Shown here in pieces: positions 1 through 5,094 of a stretch of 5,602 nucleotides of DNA (within the stretch, counting starts at the first letter, position 1; every line of letters starts with the position of its first letter). The notes under the pieces are model-generated. The model was not told where the DNA came from. It made no database searches and was given only the letters and a program-made list of their open reading frames with translations. The stretch is from a virus (taxonomy: Duplodnaviria; Heunggongvirae; Uroviricota; Caudoviricetes), in the IMG/VR virus record IMGVR_UViG_2563366830_000004, positions 1 to 5,602 of that record. One strand, given 5' to 3'. Position numbers and translations under genes: made by a program.

Positions 1-2066
1 CCGCCAGCAGTTTCCAGATCGATAGTCTTACTAAATTCCGGTCCCATATCTCCGGTTTGCGGATCGAAAAATATTGCACCTATTGAGATGATCGGGGCAT
101 CAGGATTTTTTCCCATGGTTTCAAGGTCGATCATTAGATGGTCACACGTCCTGCTGGTGGATGTGATTTCTTGATGACCGTTCACCTTAATTGAGTGATC
201 TGCCGTCTCGCCAGTTTCATTATCGCTATCGTGATGCTGATTGCCGCCAGTGTTCTCCTTGTGTGGATGTTCAGCGCCTTCCATTTCCTCCGGATCATCT
301 TCCTGAACTTCAGGCTGATACTCTTCATCGAATGTTTCCTGGTATGTTGCGTCGCCCATTACCGCGCCACAATCAGGGCAGTTGCCGCCGCCGGTCTGAC
401 CGCAGGCGGTGCAGACTTTTTCCACTTCCTGTTGCGCCACTGATTCAGGCTGTTTCGTTTCTGGCTCGTTTTGTAACGCATTTGGGCTGTTTTGTTCCGC
501 TTTCTGGTCGTTCTGTTCCGTTTCTTGCTGGTTCTGGTTCACAGAATCGCGGGTCTGGTTCCCCTTAACCCATTTCGGATCATTCGGGTCGCTAATCCCT
601 TCAACAAATTCACCACGTGATACTGCAAGCAGTTCATCGGCGTCAGGCTGGCTGATATTGGCTGCCTGCATAATTTTGTTTACTTCGTCAGCGGTAACTT
701 TTACTGACCCTGGTTGTGCGGTCGTGTCAGATGCACCAGTATTTTGTTGTGAACCTGAGTATGTACCGTTTTTGCGGGCGAAATATTCTTCTTTCGTGAT
801 TTCAGTAGCCCCAGCAGACAGCGCCTTATCCAGACCAGAAAGTTTGTTTGCGCGACCGTATTTTTCGCCGTCCTTATCGGTGAAAAGGAAGTAGAACGGT
901 CCCTCACGCTCTACAGATGGTTCGTCTTCCACTTCGCATTCGGTTTTTTCGTTGTCCGGCATTGCCGTTTCCACTGCATCAGTTTCTGGTACTGGTGACG
1001 GGAGAGTACCAGCTGTGCCCTGATTTGTTCCTTCGTCATCTTCAAACACGCCCTTGGTAGTCAGGTATTCAGTGATGTATTTGTTCAGTGCTACGGGATC
1101 TTTGTGAATGTCGATCGGACGCTCACGGACAAGGCCAAAAATAGTCTGACGGTCGTAGCGAACGGCATCGGGTTGTTTGCGCATTGATGCGGAAATGCGC
1201 TTCCAGTCTTCGCGATCTTTGTCGATAACTTCATTTTTTGCCCGGCGATGGATGCTGCCGTCAATGTTTCCGGTATCAATATCGCCAGGCCAGAGAGCGT
1301 AGGCCAGTTCTTCATCCAGCGTTTTCCATGTCTGCTTGTATTCGCGACAAATGGCGGCAGTGACTGGGTTGATTTTTCCTGCTGAGTTTTCAGTGTGCTG
1401 TTGATTGACTCTGGCGCGGGCGAGATCAACAACAGACGTGTATTTTCCAGTCTCTTTGCGCTCTGCGTCCTGCCGTTTTTTCCAGTTACGTAATTCAGCC
1501 TGAATTTCTGGCCATTTGGCACCCGGATTACATTTGTGTTTAACCCATCCGATAGCGAACAGTTTGCGTTCCGGATACATAGCGTTAATTTCAGGCGTTT
1601 TCATCAGTGCTTCAACGATATGCCCGTCAAAGGTAGCAACGTCTTCCTGCAGTAATTCCTGCGCGTCAATCGCCATATCAACGGTGATGTTTTCACATGT
1701 GTCGAACTTAACCATGACAGCGTTCTGTACTTCAGGGGCCAGCTTGTCAAAAGTGACGTTCATCGGATCTGATTCAGTCTCAACCGGGACAAAGGAAGCA
1801 GACGCCTCATCCCAGCGGTTTTCCTGCATATATTCAGCATCCCAGGAATCTAGGGCAGGGCGGGGTATACCGGGTTTATCCTCGCAGACAAGAAATTTAT
1901 AAGCGCAGTCCTGAGCAGCCGGATAATGTTCCAGGAATTGCCAGTGAAATTTTGCGCGGGCGCGACGTTCATCACCGGCTTCAATGGCAGTGGCTACAGC
2001 GACTGCACCTTCTTCCTTTATTGCCTGTTCGTCCGGAATGGCGGCGCAAATAAAGACTTTACTCAT
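1..2066 (-). CDS. Large prophage exonuclease-family protein (RecE / YdfE-like), partial: N-terminal 688 codons, C-terminus beyond the window start
   Basis: Minus-strand frame open from ATG at 2066..2064 down to codon 5..3, checked triplet by triplet with no stop. SD GAGGT about 8 nt upstream. Absent from the ORF track, presumably because there is no stop in the window. N-terminus MSKVFICAAIPDEQAIKEEG. Internal motif ELLAVSRGEFVEGISDPNDPKWVKG. CxxC-x8-CxxC at 369..413. Last in-window residues DHLMIDLETMGKNPDAPIISIGAIFFD. Position at the distal end of the early-left operon matches recE/ydfE in Rac/Qin-type prophages. Family assignment is from memory. Confidence 0.75.
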   Translation of the reverse strand, partial: MSKVFICAAIPDEQAIKEEGAVAVATAIEAGDERRARAKFHWQFLEHYPAAQDCAYKFLVCEDKPGIPRPALDSWDAEYMQENRWDEASASFVPVETESDPMNVTFDKLAPEVQNAVMVKFDTCENITVDMAIDAQELLQEDVATFDGHIVEALMKTPEINAMYPERKLFAIGWVKHKCNPGAKWPEIQAELRNWKKRQDAERKETGKYTSVVDLARARVNQQHTENSAGKINPVTAAICREYKQTWKTLDEELAYALWPGDIDTGNIDGSIHRRAKNEVIDKDREDWKRISASMRKQPDAVRYDRQTIFGLVRERPIDIHKDPVALNKYITEYLTTKGVFEDDEGTNQGTAGTLPSPVPETDAVETAMPDNEKTECEVEDEPSVEREGPFYFLFTDKDGEKYGRANKLSGLDKALSAGATEITKEEYFARKNGTYSGSQQNTGASDTTAQPGSVKVTADEVNKIMQAANISQPDADELLAVSRGEFVEGISDPNDPKWVKGNQTRDSVNQNQQETEQNDQKAEQNSPNALQNEPETKQPESVAQQEVEKVCTACGQTGGGNCPDCGAVMGDATYQETFDEEYQPEVQEDDPEEMEGAEHPHKENTGGNQHHDSDNETGETADHSIKVNGHQEITSTSRTCDHLMIDLETMGKNPDAPIISIGAIFFDPQTGDMGPEFSKTIDLETAG

Positions 2067-2158
2067 TTTGTTTTACCTCATTACAGATTTAAGGGTGAAC
2101 AAATCCCTGCCATTGCTGGCATATAAGAATGAAACCGGATATTTATTACGGAACTGTT

Positions 2159-2350
2159 TTAAAGACCTGCCGGGATTTCGTTATTATCCTGGTGAATGAC
2201 TTTATCGACCGGGTAACAGTTACCGGGAATTTTCTGTTCGGTTGCTGCAGTCACACACTCCTGCATTGTCCTGTGAACACTGACTGCAATATCAACTGGC
2301 TCTCCGGAAACAAGAAAAACTGTCAGAACAAGTGCAAATGCTGTATTCAT
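2159..2350 (-). CDS. ydfD: YdfD-like small membrane (lysis) protein, 63 aa
   Basis: ATG at 2350..2348 overlaps the dicB stop codon (ATGA overlap, translational coupling). SD AAGGA 8 nt upstream. Product MNTAFALVLTVFLVSGEPVDIAV... has a hydrophobic N-terminal segment. The 81-aa ORF-track version (start 2404) begins inside dicB and has no SD. Size and order match my recollection of Qin ydfD. Confidence 0.75.
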   Translation of the reverse strand: MNTAFALVLTVFLVSGEPVDIAVSVHRTMQECVTAATEQKIPGNCYPVDKVIHQDNNEIPAGL

Positions 2351-2535
2351 TGTGCACATCCTTTTTGTATCGGACGTAAACGGGCCAGCATTGAAAGAAT
2401 GCATATTTTATTTAATAACTCCCGTTCGTGTTTTCTCTTGTTAATGGCATCTTCAGTAAATACAGGGTTACTGATAGTGACACCAATTTCAAAACAACCT
2501 TCAGACGTATTAACGTTTGGTAATAACGTTTCCAT
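2347..2535 (-). CDS. dicB: DicB cell-division inhibitor (MinC-targeting small protein), 62 aa
   Basis: ATG at 2535..2533 with SD GAGGA 7 nt upstream. Product METLLPNVNTSEGCFEIGVTISNPVFTEDAINKRKHERELLNKICILSMLARLRPIQKGCAQ, which closely matches my recollection of K-12 DicB (62 aa). DicF lies about 180 nt upstream on the same strand. Confidence 0.85.
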   Translation of the reverse strand: METLLPNVNTSEGCFEIGVTISNPVFTEDAINKRKHERELLNKICILSMLARLRPIQKGCAQ

Positions 2536-2713
2536 TATCGCGTCCTCAACAATGAATTTTGTGATGCAGTGCCTGGTGCCTCCAGGTGACGTTAACCAGT
2601 TAACAATTAACGCCGGGTTAGTTGATGCTCGTTACGCCCGTAAAATACCGCCTTACTGCTTTAACTGTTCCGCGTGCGCATAGCCGCATTCACCGCATCA
2701 CAAAATTCACTTT

Positions 2714-2770
2714 AAAAAGGGCGGCAGAGCAGTCACGGAGTAAAACTGATACCGCCAAATGTCACCAGAA
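2714..2770 (-). ncRNA. dicF: DicF small regulatory RNA (Hfq-dependent, ftsZ-targeting); 5' end approximate
   Basis: Reverse complement of 2714..2770 is TTCTGGTGACATTTGGCGGTATCAGTTTTACTCCGTGACTGCTCTGCCGCCCTTTTT. It ends in a GC-rich stem plus U5 (intrinsic terminator) and matches my recollection of E. coli DicF. Located between ydfC-like and dicB as in the K-12 dicB operon. The mature 5' end comes from processing and cannot be fixed from sequence. Confidence 0.75.
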
Positions 2771-2796
2771 AATTGATAACAGAGGGCGTTGTAGCG

Positions 2797-2833
2797 GGGT
2801 TGTCACTTAAGCGTATGGTCAACCTGACAACCC
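2797..2833 (-). other. Perfect 9-bp stem-loop (GGGTTGTCA / TGACAACCC, 19-nt loop) just 5' of DicF on the operon transcript; candidate RNA processing structure
   Basis: Inverted repeat read directly: arms at 2797..2805 and 2825..2833. No U-run follows on either strand, so it is not a terminator. Confidence 0.45.
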
Positions 2834-3106
2834 GGTGCATTTTCTGGAGCAATGGAGGAAACCCCAGCCATACTTACCGCCGCGCCATTTCGCGGAGTGC
2901 CACAACCGGAAGCGCACGGTCGAACTAAATTTAACGACACCGTACAGAGAGACCAATTTCGCCGTGCGCTTTCGCGTTATGCCCTGACTTTTCAGGGACA
3001 TATCCTTTCAGTAAACTGTCAGTGCCGGATGCTCACCCGTGTCCGGCGCACGCACTCCACCTGACCAGTGGAGAACTCCTTAATTACCAACCCTCAGGAG
3101 GGTGAA

Positions 3107-3385
3107 ATGGATAAAAAGCAAATTGAGGCCCTGCAATCTATTATTGAAGAACAAGATGAAGCTATCAGGATTCTTTCATATCGCACTGATATGATACTAA
3201 ATATGCTTTCTGCATTAACGGCTGCGCTTGGTGGTACAAAAACAAACGTATACCGCGAAGTTGTTATTCAACAGATAGATAAATTTGAAAAAACCATACC
3301 AGGTATTAATGCTCATCTTGCAGAACAAGAGAAAGACCATGCTCTTATGGCAATTTCTTCAGTAGCTCTCCCGAAAGTTGAGTAG
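3107..3385 (+). CDS. Hypothetical 92-aa acidic, predicted helical protein; AT-rich moron convergent to the early-left operon
   Basis: ATG at 3107 preceded by SD AGGAGG (3096..3101) with a 5-nt spacer; stop TAG at 3383..3385. Product MDKKQIEALQSIIEEQDEAIRILSYRTDMILNMLSALTAALGGTKTNVYREVVIQQIDKFEKTIPGINAHLAEQEKDHALMAISSVALPKVE. About 37% G+C by hand count, versus roughly 50% in the neighbouring large gene. The ORF-track start at 3068 (GTG) lies inside a hairpin and lacks an SD. Confidence 0.7.
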   Translation: MDKKQIEALQSIIEEQDEAIRILSYRTDMILNMLSALTAALGGTKTNVYREVVIQQIDKFEKTIPGINAHLAEQEKDHALMAISSVALPKVE

Positions 3386-3746
3386 TTTTAATTGTTGTTT
3401 TGAAATAATCACTGCTTTCACATTTGAGTGATTTCATGGCAATCCAAATGCGGGCCTCTGTGCCTGCATTTGGTTCCAGTTGCTGTAGACGTTTTGCGTC
3501 TTCCAAAAGTAAGGCGATAATGTGTTTCAGCTTCTCATCATTTGCTTGATTCTTGTTTTCAGGCGAATTCTGTCCGCCGAATAGGCGCTTCTCTTCATAC
3601 AGACCTATAAAGGCACGACGCACGTTACCGGATATAGTATCGATGGTTTCCTTTTCTACAGTACTCAGGTCAAGAGTCGCCAGTTGAGAGCGAACCACAT
3701 TCGCTGCCATTTCCTGGAATGGCATTGGTAAATCTTTAAATTCCAT
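3345..3746 (-). CDS. Hypothetical 133-aa protein, no recognisable motif; member of the early-left operon
   Basis: ATG at 3746..3744 with SD GAGG 6 nt upstream, 22 nt after the ydfC-like stop. Product MEFKDLPMPFQEMAANVVRSQLATLDLSTVEKETIDTISGNVRRAFIGLYEEKRLFGG... The last 41 nt overlap the 3' end of the plus-strand 92-aa gene. Confidence 0.7.
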   Translation of the reverse strand: MEFKDLPMPFQEMAANVVRSQLATLDLSTVEKETIDTISGNVRRAFIGLYEEKRLFGGQNSPENKNQANDEKLKHIIALLLEDAKRLQQLEPNAGTEARIWIAMKSLKCESSDYFKTTIKTTQLSGELLKKLP

Positions 3747-3768
3747 TATTAGCCTCGTTGGTTAGCTA

Positions 3769-3987
3769 TTAACGTGGGTATGTAACCATTCTGGCAATGC
3801 TTAATGCCGCTGCTTTTTCCAGCCTGGTGATATCCTGCTCCAGAGCGGACAGATTTTCAGCCTGCTTAGTCCTGGCTTCATTGGCCCATTTCAGATCCTG
3901 CACTGCATTAATTTTCTGGCGCATCCACTCATAAAGTTCATCATCGGTATAGTCTGGCGCGATGATGACGGGTTCTCGTTTCTGCAT
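3769..3987 (-). CDS. ydfC: YdfC-like small protein, 72 aa
   Basis: ATG at 3987..3985 with SD GAGGA 7 nt upstream. Product MQKREPVIIAPDYTDDELYEWMRQKINAVQDLKWANEARTKQAENLSALEQDITRLEKAAALSIARMVTYPR. Size and operon position match the third gene of the K-12 dicB operon (recollection). Confidence 0.75.
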   Translation of the reverse strand: MQKREPVIIAPDYTDDELYEWMRQKINAVQDLKWANEARTKQAENLSALEQDITRLEKAAALSIARMVTYPR

Positions 3988-4016
3988 ACTGATTCCTCGC
4001 GGTGCTGTTTCGCTTA

Positions 4017-4145
4017 TCAGCCGTTAGATTTTCCCGAACTGGAAAGCGCCTGTTTAAATTCACTGAAGCTGAGAGCTTCTTCGCCTTCGGCAAGACCATC
4101 GAAGTATTCTTCGTAAGCCTTTTCCATGATTGTGTCGAAATCCAT
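4017..4145 (-). CDS. ydfB: YdfB-like small protein, 42 aa
   Basis: ATG at 4145..4143 sits 1 nt after the upstream gene's TGA (GAGTGATATGG), SD-like AGGTGA upstream; stop TGA at 4017..4019. Product MDFDTIMEKAYEEYFDGLAEGEEALSFSEFKQALSSSGKSNG. Below the ORF-track size cut-off. Size and position match K-12 ydfB (recollection). Confidence 0.65.
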   Translation of the reverse strand: MDFDTIMEKAYEEYFDGLAEGEEALSFSEFKQALSSSGKSNG

Positions 4146-4146
4146 A

Positions 4147-4302
4147 TCACTCACCTGAGTTTCTTTCCAGCCAGCGACGGGCACCATTTTCGGTTTTAAA
4201 CGTTTTGCTTTTGGTATACGTCATCGCGGTGAATGTGCCGTCCTGGTTGGGAAACACGCCGTACACCAGAGATTCGTTGTTGCCAAGCTCGATAGTATCC
4301 AT
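4147..4302 (-). CDS. ydfA: YdfA-like small protein, 51 aa; first gene of the early-left operon
   Basis: ATG at 4302..4300 with SD GAGG and a 5-nt spacer; stop TGA at 4147..4149. Product MDTIELGNNESLVYGVFPNQDGTFTAMTYTKSKTFKTENGARRWLERNSGE. Below the ORF-track cut-off. Size and position match K-12 ydfA (recollection). Confidence 0.7.
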   Translation of the reverse strand: MDTIELGNNESLVYGVFPNQDGTFTAMTYTKSKTFKTENGARRWLERNSGE

Positions 4303-4371
4303 GCTGACCTCATTTCCCCTTAACGCCGGGTGGCGGAACTAAAACCTACAGCGCCGTGCTGTTCTTGATAG

Positions 4372-4394
4372 AAATATTAGTAACGCGGATATTT
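4372..4394. promoter_or_regulatory. Candidate left operator: inverted repeat AAATAT-N11-ATATTT overlapping the -10 and spacer of the leftward promoter
   Basis: Arms at 4372..4377 and 4389..4394. The 9-mer AAATATTAG at 4372..4380 recurs at 4460..4468 and, inverted, at 5088..5096 in the right operator region. Confidence 0.45.
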
Positions 4395-4402
4395 TAAGTC
4401 AA
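4374..4402 (-). promoter_or_regulatory. Leftward early promoter (PL / dicBp equivalent)
   Basis: On the minus strand: -35 TTGACT (4402..4397), 17-nt spacer, -10 TAATAT (4379..4374). Predicted start near 4367, about 65 nt upstream of the ydfA-like ATG. Confidence 0.6.
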
Positions 4403-4499
4403 CAGTATGGCGTATGATATTTTTGATTTGGTAACTATGTAAATGTTTTTTCAAGGGAAAAATATTAGTTATACAGCTGATTTGCAGAAGTTATGGCAC

Positions 4500-4529
4500 A
4501 AAAAAACCGACTAAGACGTCGGTTTTTTT
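4500..4529. terminator. Bidirectional rho-independent terminator between the repressor gene and the PL/OL region
   Basis: A7 (4500..4506), stem CCGAC / GTCGG (4507..4511 and 4518..4522) with a 6-nt loop, then T7 (4523..4529). Lies 26 nt downstream of the repressor stop codon. Confidence 0.8.
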
Positions 4530-4555
4530 GTTGTGGATGGGGTAGTGAGCGGTGG

Positions 4556-5017
4556 CTACTGGTTACGTTTCTTTAGTGCCAGCATGTTCTCGAAGGCTTC
4601 CTCGTAGAGCTTGTTTAGTCCACGTAGCTGGTTAAGGAGTTTGGCTTTTTCTGACGCAGGTAGAATCTCGAAGAGGTTAAGTAACTCTGCCTGTTCTTCA
4701 TTGACCAGCCTCCATCCTTTGCCTGAAAAGTTATCATCATAAGTATCTGATGATCTTACATAATTCATTAAGTCTTTAAGGTCTTCTCGAATGTCCTCTG
4801 GTTTTACCTTTAACAGAGCCGCAAATTTTAGCGCAGCGTCGGTATTTACCGGTATCTTGCCGTTCAGATACTGGCTAACGGTGCCTTGAGATTCGAATCC
4901 CAACAACTCAGCCGCCAGCTCTTGAGTCAGCTTCAGCTCTTTTTTTCTTGCATTCCATGCGGCTTTTAAATTCTTGCTCGCTTCTGGAGTTGCAATCACT
5001 TCGCGTGTTTTTTTCAT
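4556..5017 (-). CDS. Prophage repressor, CI/DicA-type HTH (XRE family), 153 aa, without a LexA-like S24 cleavage domain
   Basis: ATG at 5017..5015, stop TAG at 4556..4558. The N-terminal part KELKLTQELAAELLGFESQGTVSQYLNGKIPVNTDAALKFAALLKV has the lambda CI / P22 C2 HTH pattern. The C-terminal part (ELLNLFEILPASEKAKLLNQL...) resembles the DicA C-terminus as I recall it and has no Ser-Lys peptidase motifs. Sits upstream of the dicB-type operon and divergent from a Cro-like gene. Confidence 0.85.
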   Translation of the reverse strand: MKKTREVIATPEASKNLKAAWNARKKELKLTQELAAELLGFESQGTVSQYLNGKIPVNTDAALKFAALLKVKPEDIREDLKDLMNYVRSSDTYDDNFSGKGWRLVNEEQAELLNLFEILPASEKAKLLNQLRGLNKLYEEAFENMLALKKRNQ

Positions 5018-5023
5018 ACATAG

Positions 5024-5051
5024 AGTTTATTTGTTTTACCAATATTATCAA
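5024..5051 (-). promoter_or_regulatory. Repressor (maintenance-type) promoter giving a leaderless or near-leaderless mRNA
   Basis: On the minus strand: -35 TTGATA (5051..5046), 16-nt spacer, -10 TAAACT (5029..5024), only 6 nt before the ATG. There is no SD ahead of the repressor start, as for lambda PRM. Confidence 0.5.
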
Positions 5052-5065
5052 AGATAGTCTGGCTA

Positions 5066-5094
5066 TTGATCTTTAAAATTAGCGGGGCTAATAT
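5066..5094 (+). promoter_or_regulatory. Rightward promoter (PR equivalent) for the Cro/YdaS-like gene
   Basis: -35 TTGATC (5066..5071), 17-nt spacer, -10 TAATAT (5089..5094). Predicted start near 5101; SD GAAGG at 5114..5118; ATG at 5125. Confidence 0.6.
5078..5092. promoter_or_regulatory. Candidate right operator: perfect palindrome ATTAGC-GGG-GCTAAT overlapping the PR spacer and -10
   Basis: Read directly from the sequence. Shares the AAATATTAG core (inverted) with the left operator region. Confidence 0.45.

Follow-up and report, generated by a model that had tools for sequence, protein, structure and literature searches.

What is encoded by the extra open reading frame (ORF) between ydfC and dicF in the dicB-type operon of a lambdoid prophage, and is it a gene at all? 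The DNA in question, here called the window, comprises 5,602 nucleotides (nt), positions 1 to 5,602 of the IMG/VR record IMGVR_UViG_2563366830_000004 from a virus of the Caudoviricetes. The frame, here named ORF133, occupies positions 3345..3746 on the minus strand in the ORF listing, with an ATG start and 133 amino acids (aa) followed by a stop. A first-pass annotation made from the letters alone had described it as an unassigned soluble, helical protein, carried as cargo by this prophage variant, and had noted that early-left operons of lambdoid phages commonly carry host-takeover and anti-defence genes.

ORF133 is already in the databases as a hypothetical protein (PHROG 1363, WP_000394529) and is ordinary in kind, being an uncharacterised accessory gene in a known type of lambdoid variable region. 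Added here are its convergent partner, the exact 656-base-pair (bp) cassette that holds both genes, its origin by fusion, an apparent equivalence to the sieB slot of other prophages, the spread of one half of the protein including its occurrence on plasmids, and a hairpin on the antisense strand. The locus is a reasonable, modest experimental target, and no new mechanism was discovered.

Evidence for a genuine gene

The length of ORF133 alone is no proof of a gene, because the ORF listing of the window also holds longer, spurious frames of 143-184 aa; the proof is the conservation of the protein. Among 19 distinct nucleotide versions of the full-length gene the ratio of nonsynonymous to synonymous polymorphism (pN/pS), a descriptive figure, is 0.26, with values of 0.27 for the N-terminal module, 0.10 for the linker and 0.18 for the second module (module A), and the gene is under purifying selection. 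The frame is kept in full in 68 of 71 related loci. The protein matches PHROG 1363 with an E value of 3.4e-45, residues 1-131 aligning with profile positions 1-126 of 139. It is identical to WP_000394529.1, which the Prokaryotic Genome Annotation Pipeline (PGAP) labels "hypothetical protein" in complete genomes with the same gene order. On this conservation, the PHROG match and the PGAP call, the earlier reading of ORF133 as a real gene on the operon strand is borne out, and ORF133 is a genuine, conserved prophage protein-coding gene. The exact protein is found, unnamed in all cases, on at least 1000 public contigs, and the full-length type in 168 of 5426 complete genomes of Escherichia coli, which contradicts the supposition that it is specific to this prophage variant.

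The translation signals reported earlier were both found on the sequence. A Shine-Dalgarno motif GAGG (3753..3756, minus strand) lies 6 nt before the ATG (3746-3744), and 22 nt separate that ATG from the ydfC stop codon TAA (3771-3769). The GAGG lies outside the segment that distinguishes the window from K-12, where the corresponding sequence is AAAG. The conserved arrangement GAGG-N6-ATG argues that MEFKDLP is the real start of the protein. Many relatives among the IMG/VR loci L020-L087 have an ATG five codons upstream (MRLTMEFKDLP, 137 aa), at which the window has ACG.

Protein architecture and origin

Four parts can be distinguished in ORF133, all on the minus strand. The N module (residues 1-55, 3582..3746) reads MEFKDLP..FQEMAAN..NVRRAFIGLYEEK and is predicted to form a helical hairpin. 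The linker (residues 56-68, 3543..3581) is predicted to be disordered and has the fusion junction at its 3' end. Module A (residues 69-108, 3423..3542), which begins KLKHIIALLLEDAKRLQQLEPNAGTEARIWIA..., contains predicted helices at residues 67-90 and 94-106. The tail (residues 109-133 plus stop, 3345..3422) is predicted to be disordered and is under more relaxed selection (pN/pS 0.43). The AlphaFold2 model has helices at residues 8-22, 32-55, 67-90 and 94-106, with linker 53-67 and tail 113-133 disordered, so that the protein is modelled as two helical hairpins. The grand average of hydropathy (GRAVY) is -0.48 and the isoelectric point (pI) of the N module is 4.9. The earlier description as soluble and helical, with no helix-turn-helix, nuclease or transmembrane motif, fits this GRAVY value, the four-helix model of low confidence and the lack of any significant match in Pfam, NCBIfam and PADLOC scans.

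The PHROG matches divide the protein in two, residues 1-62 corresponding to PHROGs 6937, 2151 and 9419 and residues 69-117 to PHROGs 30817, 12693, 32391 and 2982. All of these, like PHROG 1363, are annotated as "unknown function"; ORF133 represents the fused form, and most members of these families are single-headed. The N module (MEFKDLP..FQEMAAN..NVRRAFIGLY) is joined elsewhere to several unrelated C-termini, among them the type B protein (PHROG 6937), PPompW_070 and proteins of 112-208 aa. Module A stands at the extreme N terminus of its other carriers (M.E.ELKH...), which begin M-x-E-x-ELKH in more than 60 clusters. Stand-alone genes of 66-67 aa (P0157 and P0160; loci L006 and L074) carry the exact module A and tail of ORF133, and from AAACACATT onward the DNA of the window hardly differs from that of the 67-aa genes at L006 and L074. 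An ATGATG at 3536..3541 (minus strand), out of frame inside ORF133, is the relic start of the ancestral stand-alone module-A gene.

Because the stand-alone genes match from AAACACATT on and the relic ATGATG is visible, ORF133 is taken to be established as an in-frame fusion of two small genes, each of which encoded a predicted helical head of about 50 aa. Both heads are also found alone or with other tails at the same genomic position. An internal duplication was considered as the source of the two heads, which MAFFT aligned once, and was rejected, as hhalign gives 0.1%.

The convergent gene and the cassette

The cargo is not a single inserted ORF, as had been thought. A second gene, overlooked in the first-pass annotation, faces ORF133 from the opposite strand. 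ORF92 (3107-3385, plus strand) encodes 92 aa (WP_000358769.1 in PGAP, PHROG 18692) and is preceded by a Shine-Dalgarno motif GGAGG at 3097-3101 on the plus strand; its 3' end overlaps the last 41 nt of ORF133. The Qin prophage of K-12 aligns to the window at 4340-3749 (96%) and 3092-1300 (90%) only. The missing segment of 656 bp (3093-3748) holds ORF133 and ORF92 and is bounded by both start codons, its edges lying 2 nt before the ATG of ORF133 and 14 nt before the ATG of ORF92. Direct repeats or target duplications were looked for at its ends and not found. The absence of ORF133 from the K-12 dicBF operon, as given in the first-pass annotation, is confirmed by this alignment, and its place in the variable part of the early-left region is supported.

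Among the 5426 complete E. coli genomes, 2854 have the empty junction of the K-12 type and 544 have an alternative gene, type B, whose first ~55 codons are as in ORF133. If this reading of the junction is true, the interval between ydfC and dicF would be a swap site and not generally a "long untranslated region", with three common states in E. coli: empty in ~53%, type B in 10% and type A, the ORF133 type, in 3% of complete genomes. In strains with the cassette, transcription would converge upstream of dicF and a further structured element would be present there, and both could alter the expression of the small RNA (sRNA) and of dicB.

The ORF92 family is confined to E. coli and Salmonella (22 clusters). 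Of the 71 loci of the ORF133 type, 50 have an intact ORF92, 5 a frameshifted one and 15 a gene for a 61-aa protein in its place. The AlphaFold2 model of ORF92 is a soluble protein of three helices with a mean predicted local distance difference test (pLDDT) of 69.9, for which Foldseek gives no PDB match below E 0.9. Nothing significant was found for ORF92 in the Pfam, NCBIfam and PADLOC scans, and the sole toxin-antitoxin-like match is RelB-like (E 0.014, 15.7 bits against a cutoff of 50).

The sieB slot

In the Rac prophage of K-12 the sieB gene is convergent to the early-left genes and overlaps ydaF by 4 nt, and in phage lambda the N gene abuts a convergent sieB. ORF92 is likewise convergent to the early-left genes and lies between those and the kil/dicB block. 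Upstream of the convergent genes the DNA is conserved from one cargo type to another and also between Rac and locus L091 (81%), and loci L091, L093 and L103 agree with the window as far as about position 3065. From the shared layout and the homologous upstream flank it therefore appears that ORF92 sits in the sieB slot and that ORF133 is the early-left gene facing this slot; by this comparison the position of ORF92 is equivalent to the sieB slot of Rac and lambda, which holds unrelated small genes in different prophages. The equivalence is one of position. ORF92 is not a SieB homologue, as it matches PHROG 18692 only, whereas the Rac SieB matches PHROG 6399.

The convergent genes of the slot are mutually unrelated and comprise PHROG 8894, PHROG 18692 (ORF92), PHROGs 10348 and 28250, the 61-aa protein and a zinc (Zn)-ribbon protein; behind the type B gene the convergent gene encodes a membrane-like protein of 148 aa (PHROG 6315). 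PHROG 8894 (72-113 aa) is the commonest slot cargo outside the dicF-type E. coli prophages. It was found as convergent ORFs at loci L002, L003, L007, L009, L011, L013, L015, L017, L092 and L093, in types with "VRVELRNSE.ADY..LHEKM" or "HVSLFNASSEQK..", and has no Pfam match.

A candidate promoter region for the convergent gene lies at 2982-3017 on the plus strand and consists of a hairpin CCCTGACTTTTCAGGG (2982-2997), a -35-like TTTTCA (2989-2994), a 17-nt spacer and a -10-like TAAACT (3012-3017). Homologous sequence precedes other convergent cargo genes. In the window it is a manual reading that scores only 8/12, below the threshold of the scan, and the equivalent element in locus L092 is TTAACC-17-TATACT with an upstream TG. 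A second hairpin, GCCGGA..TCCGGC, lies at 3024-3047 (plus strand) within a conserved element at 2982-3065. K-12 keeps this element without a convergent gene, where it might drive antisense transcription into ydfC.

Conservation and spread of module A

Module A is 80-90% identical in more than 100 protein clusters (47-141 aa) from prophages of Enterobacterales and an Aeromonas phage, and is followed by highly variable tails. Its motif [KR]H[VI]IALLLEDAKRLQQ.EPNAGTEARIW is present in residues 71-101 of ORF133. In 24 distinct nucleotide versions the majority fractions at codon positions 1, 2 and 3 are 0.85, 0.93 and 0.68, and in helix 1 (ELKHVIALLLEDAKRLQQ) the protein is conserved with ample synonymous change.

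Synteny was compared for 36 distinct module-A proteins from Escherichia/Shigella, Salmonella, Citrobacter, Hafnia, Raoultella, Lelliottia, Cronobacter phage phiES15, Aeromonas phage pAEv1818 and IMG/VR contigs. A DicA/RacR/cI-type repressor is encoded upstream of the gene in the same orientation, and in some loci homologues of ydfA, ydfB or ydfC come between the two. A convergent ORF nearly always follows, overlapping by 4-63 nt or lying within about 80 nt, and beyond it come KilR or DicB, YdaE, RacC and a RecE-type exonuclease. At least 7 genera share the order repressor, small genes, module A, convergent gene, KilR/DicB and RecE, and further loci keep it in part. ORF133, with the motif, a repressor upstream on the same strand and a convergent ORF, belongs to the early-left family that we define by these features. 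The first-pass annotation had held that identification as a conserved Qin/Rac operon gene would speak against a cargo gene. The result comes close to this: module A, half of the protein, is conserved in such operons of many genera, and the gene is not present in K-12. Module A is among the most conserved small proteins of this prophage class and would be a cheap target for pulldown or phenotype screens.

Module A also heads a protein of 112 aa on 40 large plasmids of Morganellaceae (Providencia, Proteus, Moellerella and Morganella), 38 of which are typed as conjugative; an example is locus L105, 4001-4339, on the Providencia plasmid pPROV008-1. The plasmid protein begins MSENELKQLIAMLLEDAKRIQQIEPNAGTAARI and keeps EPNAGT.ARI with other codons (CCC, GCC, GGA, CGA) and with no hairpin. 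On the one plasmid examined the gene has no convergent partner. More than 30 kb of small ORFs, all in one direction, extend from mobI there, and the gene is one of them, ~7 kb downstream of mobI. Weaker module-A matches occur on plasmids of Citrobacter and Klebsiella.

The hairpin inside module A

Positions 3444-3473 on the plus strand form a hairpin within module A, CCAAATGCGGGC-CTCTGT-GCCTGCATTTGG, with 12 pairs including G.U and a loop of 6 nt. It begins 59 nt past the ORF92 stop codon, and its place coincides exactly with the boundary between conserved DNA and the variable slot. The consensus of the inverted repeat, from 24 distinct nucleotide versions, is two 12-nt arms, CCAAATGCAGGC-ACNGAR-GCCCGCATYTGG. 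Codon usage is nearly fixed in the arms (CCA 23/23, AAT 23/24, GCA 22/23, GGC 21/24, GCC 22/24 and CGC 23/23) and variable at the two codons of the loop; the arms have a major-codon fraction of 0.89, versus 0.65 elsewhere (Mann-Whitney p=0.0015). The arms are under constraint at the nucleotide level. This signal does not account for the conservation of module A as a whole, because helix 1 shows synonymous change and the plasmid homologue uses different codons.

The sense strand has a fixed A.C mismatch, to which variation between ATT and ATC (Ile) adds a second, and both become G.U on the antisense strand, which therefore pairs better (94.4% of cells paired, versus 82.9% on the sense strand). 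The consensus stem given by RNAalifold has 9 bp, and the plus strand of window positions 3430-3495 folds at -27 kcal/mol (z = -4.0). A canonical intrinsic terminator was considered and rejected, as there is no U-tract, the hairpin was not flagged by the terminator scan and double changes that compensate for each other are lacking. To judge from its sequence and place, the hairpin probably shapes the 3' end of the mRNA of the convergent gene or insulates it; a protein-binding palindrome or a recombination boundary is a possible alternative.

Searches for function

No family of known function and no known fold was recovered by remote-homology checks of the kind that the first-pass annotation had proposed, namely profile searches and Foldseek on a predicted structure. 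Neither single sequences nor profiles of the two modules found anything among the PDB sequences, and an exhaustive phmmer search against 1.8 billion representatives gave partial matches to one module or the other only, none of them annotated. The best Foldseek match of the ORF133 model is an uncharacterised phi191 protein of 52 aa (50 columns, 38% identity), which is probably a relative of the N module. Among described anti-defence families nothing significant was found via Pfam, PDB and Foldseek; the match to AcrIE3, at E 7.5, is meaningless. In the PADLOC-DB scan of ORF133 and ORF92 the best E values were 0.025 and 0.059, both on small fragments, and neither was assigned to a defence protein. 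Literature searches by RefSeq accession returned no paper, the gene goes unmentioned in the papers on dicBF, CP-933P and Rac YdaT, and nothing relevant was found in print on a sieB or lambdoid defence hotspot.

Proposed role and rival explanations

The reading that we prefer is that ORF133 is a real fused gene carried in a cassette and that its product is a small binding protein aimed at a component of the host or of mobile elements. Transcription would start only once the DicA-type repressor is lifted. The product would be a soluble, all-helical protein of 15 kDa without a catalytic motif that acts by binding another macromolecule, which is the most likely mode because no catalytic motif is present in so small an all-helical protein. 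A conserved component of the host, or one that mobile elements have in common, would be a likelier partner than the product of a neighboring gene, because module A is near-invariant whatever repressor or cargo accompanies it and recurs on conjugative plasmids. The role would lie in host takeover, establishment or anti-defence rather than in division control by DicF and DicB, and the hairpin in the antisense transcript would shape the 3' end of the mRNA of the convergent gene. The only new circumstantial support for takeover or anti-defence is the presence of module A on conjugative plasmids, in the small-ORF array downstream of mobI. Taken as a whole, structural claims included, this reading has in our judgement an even chance of being right, and its functional part is much less certain than the rest.

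Several points weigh against it. Confidence in the AlphaFold2 model of ORF133 is low (pLDDT 59.6, predicted template modelling score 0.33), Foldseek of that model against PDB and BFVD gave no match below E 0.02, and the searches described above found no homologue of known function or fold for either ORF133 or ORF92. The pairs behind the pN/pS values and the IMG/VR loci are non-independent samples, so that the figures drawn from them are descriptive. No compensatory double substitutions were seen in the hairpin. That the plasmid array is a leading region is only our assumption, by analogy with IncC plasmids, in which oriT lies just upstream of mobI. Both module A and the N module stand strictly next to the convergent slot, which could instead point to a functional link with the cargo gene.

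Such a link is the substance of the first and main rival, in which ORF133 is the phage's own antidote or regulator for the gene that faces it. ORF92, made in the lysogen, would exclude or abort incoming phages, and ORF133, made on induction, would switch ORF92 off, in the manner of Esc against SieB or of a toxin-antitoxin-like pair. Relative to K-12 the two genes come and go as a pair, with 41 nt of overlap at their 3' ends, and genes with module A or the N module nearly always face convergent cargo in the sieB slot. Tails also co-vary with cargo; the tail ...RIYHETMV.ALR..., for instance, goes with PHROG 8894 behind either head. The last point loses weight as the physical overlap forces such co-variation, and minimal module-A proteins of 47-52 aa, almost without tail, face the same PHROG 8894 as the long-tailed ones. 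Moreover, at least six unrelated cargo families lie opposite the same heads (PHROGs 18692, 8894, 10348, 28250 and 6315, the 61-aa protein and the Zn-ribbon protein), intact ORF133 occurs with a frameshifted ORF92 in 5 loci and with the different 61-aa gene in 15, and the plasmid homologue has no convergent partner. The convergent layout is atypical of type II toxin-antitoxin systems; neither gene has a Pfam or PADLOC match, and the RelB-like match to ORF92 stays far below its cutoff. We consider a pair of this kind unlikely.

Module A might instead be the counterpart of CIII in lambdoid phages of the YdaT type, that is, a helical FtsH inhibitor of about 50 aa that would stabilise YdaT. Size class and operon are as for cIII, YdaT or CII is encoded on the other arm in most module-A loci, and YdaT is described as a functional equivalent of CII (PMC9986795). 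Phage phiES15 has cII and no annotated cIII, and a target conserved among hosts, such as FtsH, would suit a module that varies so extremely little from genus to genus. Set against this, hhalign of module A with lambda CIII gives a probability of 0.1% (E 0.47), nothing shows YdaT to be a substrate of FtsH and the plasmid homologues have no obvious need of a CIII function, which leaves the proposal with a slim chance. About as slim is the chance that the protein is functionless and the frame is kept for DNA signals, such as the hairpin or 3' end of the convergent transcript, recombination flanks of the slot or translational coupling that sustains early-left transcription. The nucleotide-level constraint on the hairpin arms, the stop of conservation right after the hairpin at the variable slot, the highly variable tails and the predicted disorder of linker and tail would all agree with this. 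It is opposed by the pattern throughout helix 1 of module A and the N module, where codons vary synonymously and the amino acids are kept, by pN/pS values of 0.18-0.27 in both heads and by the plasmid homologue, which keeps the peptide motif with different codons and without the hairpin.

Least probable of all, and hardly credible, is that ORF133 or module A acts as an N-like antiterminator for read-through of the DicF terminator into dicB. In K-12 the 3' end of DicF is made by Rho-independent termination upstream of dicB (PMC5069750), and there is only the positional analogy with lambda N, which abuts the convergent sieB. ORF133 has no arginine-rich motif, however, and its N terminus, MEFKDLPMPFQEMAAN, is acidic, in line with the pI of the N module; hhalign against lambda N gives a probability of 0.1%, and in K-12 and 2854 other complete genomes the dicBF operon does without ORF133.

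The preferred reading, a fused early gene whose product would bind a host or mobile-element component, has a bolder extension, to which we give only a small chance. Module A, the antisense hairpin and the conserved promoter region would together bound an undescribed hypervariable cargo hotspot, the sieB slot of Qin/Rac-type prophages across Enterobacterales and of an Aeromonas phage, in which small genes for exclusion or defence from at least 7 unrelated families would be carried. The module-A protein, shared with conjugative plasmids, would be a new, widespread early counter-factor (anti-defence, anti-exclusion or a CIII-like protease inhibitor), and ORF133 its double-headed form. If the equivalence of the slot is true, it would offer a defined place to seek new small exclusion or defence genes and the early proteins that face them.

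Genomic neighborhood

ORF133 is the last gene of the first early-left block of a Qin/Rac-type lambdoid prophage. The gene order in the window is repressor, ydfA, ydfB, ydfC, ORF133, convergent gene, DicF, dicB, ydfD and a RecE-like exonuclease. A helix-turn-helix repressor is encoded at 4556-5017 (minus strand), followed on the same strand by ydfA/DUF1391 (4147-4302, Pfam E 7e-28), a ydfB-like ORF between ydfA and ydfC, and ydfC (3769-3987), the upstream neighbor of ORF133, which is named by PGAP in identical loci. Downstream, also on the minus strand, lie the DicF sRNA (2719-2770; Rfam 77 bits versus a gathering score of 48), DicB (2347-2535, Pfam E 4e-38) and, after dicB in the operon, ydfD/DUF1482.

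The RecE-like exonuclease frame (3-2066, minus strand) is open for 688 codons to the left edge of the window and is 95% identical to an 823-aa protein of strain 118UI. A pseudogene in the window was considered and rejected, as all 688 codons held are open; in the closest complete genome (MS 196-1) the exonuclease gene is a pseudogene with an internal stop. On the right side a YdaS-type gene (5119-5361, plus strand) is directly followed by the C-terminal end of an IS3-family transposase (5401-5602, minus strand), which runs off the right end of the window. In the closest complete genome the right arm of the prophage is interrupted by an IS3 element between ydaS and ydaT.

Comparison with known systems

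The dicBF operon of K-12 Qin (ydfA-ydfB-ydfC-dicF-dicB-ydfD) has the same backbone as the window, with 90-96% identity on both sides of the cassette and with DicF and DicB in both. Between ydfC and dicF it has only an untranslated stretch of 340 nt, whereas the window has 656 additional bases and two genes.

Lambda CIII, a 54-aa FtsH inhibitor from the pL operon, resembles module A in position, size and plausible logic only, with no detectable sequence relationship. To the anti-defence and establishment genes of plasmid leading regions the likeness is that the 112-aa module-A protein also stands in a co-directional array of small ORFs, which would be a leading region by analogy with IncC plasmids.

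The closest parallels in layout are lambda N/sieB and Rac ydaG-ydaF/sieB, in which the early-left genes also end at a convergent gene, abutting it in lambda, overlapping by 4 nt in Rac and by 41 nt in the window. The gene that faces the slot is N in lambda, ydaF in Rac and ORF133 in the window, and the likeness to exclusion systems is one of position only. Unlike SieB, which is a membrane protein (PHROG 6399), ORF92 is predicted to be a soluble three-helix protein (PHROG 18692). The kilR-kilS intergenic region and the 3' part of KilS in K-12 Rac (L100, 2750-2916) align at 77% with window positions 2551-2724 (dicB-DicF), and KilS and DicF look like counterparts in position and partly in sequence. 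Behind the slot, Rac and the window both have an sRNA (KilS in Rac, DicF in the window), a division inhibitor (KilR and DicB, respectively) and recE.

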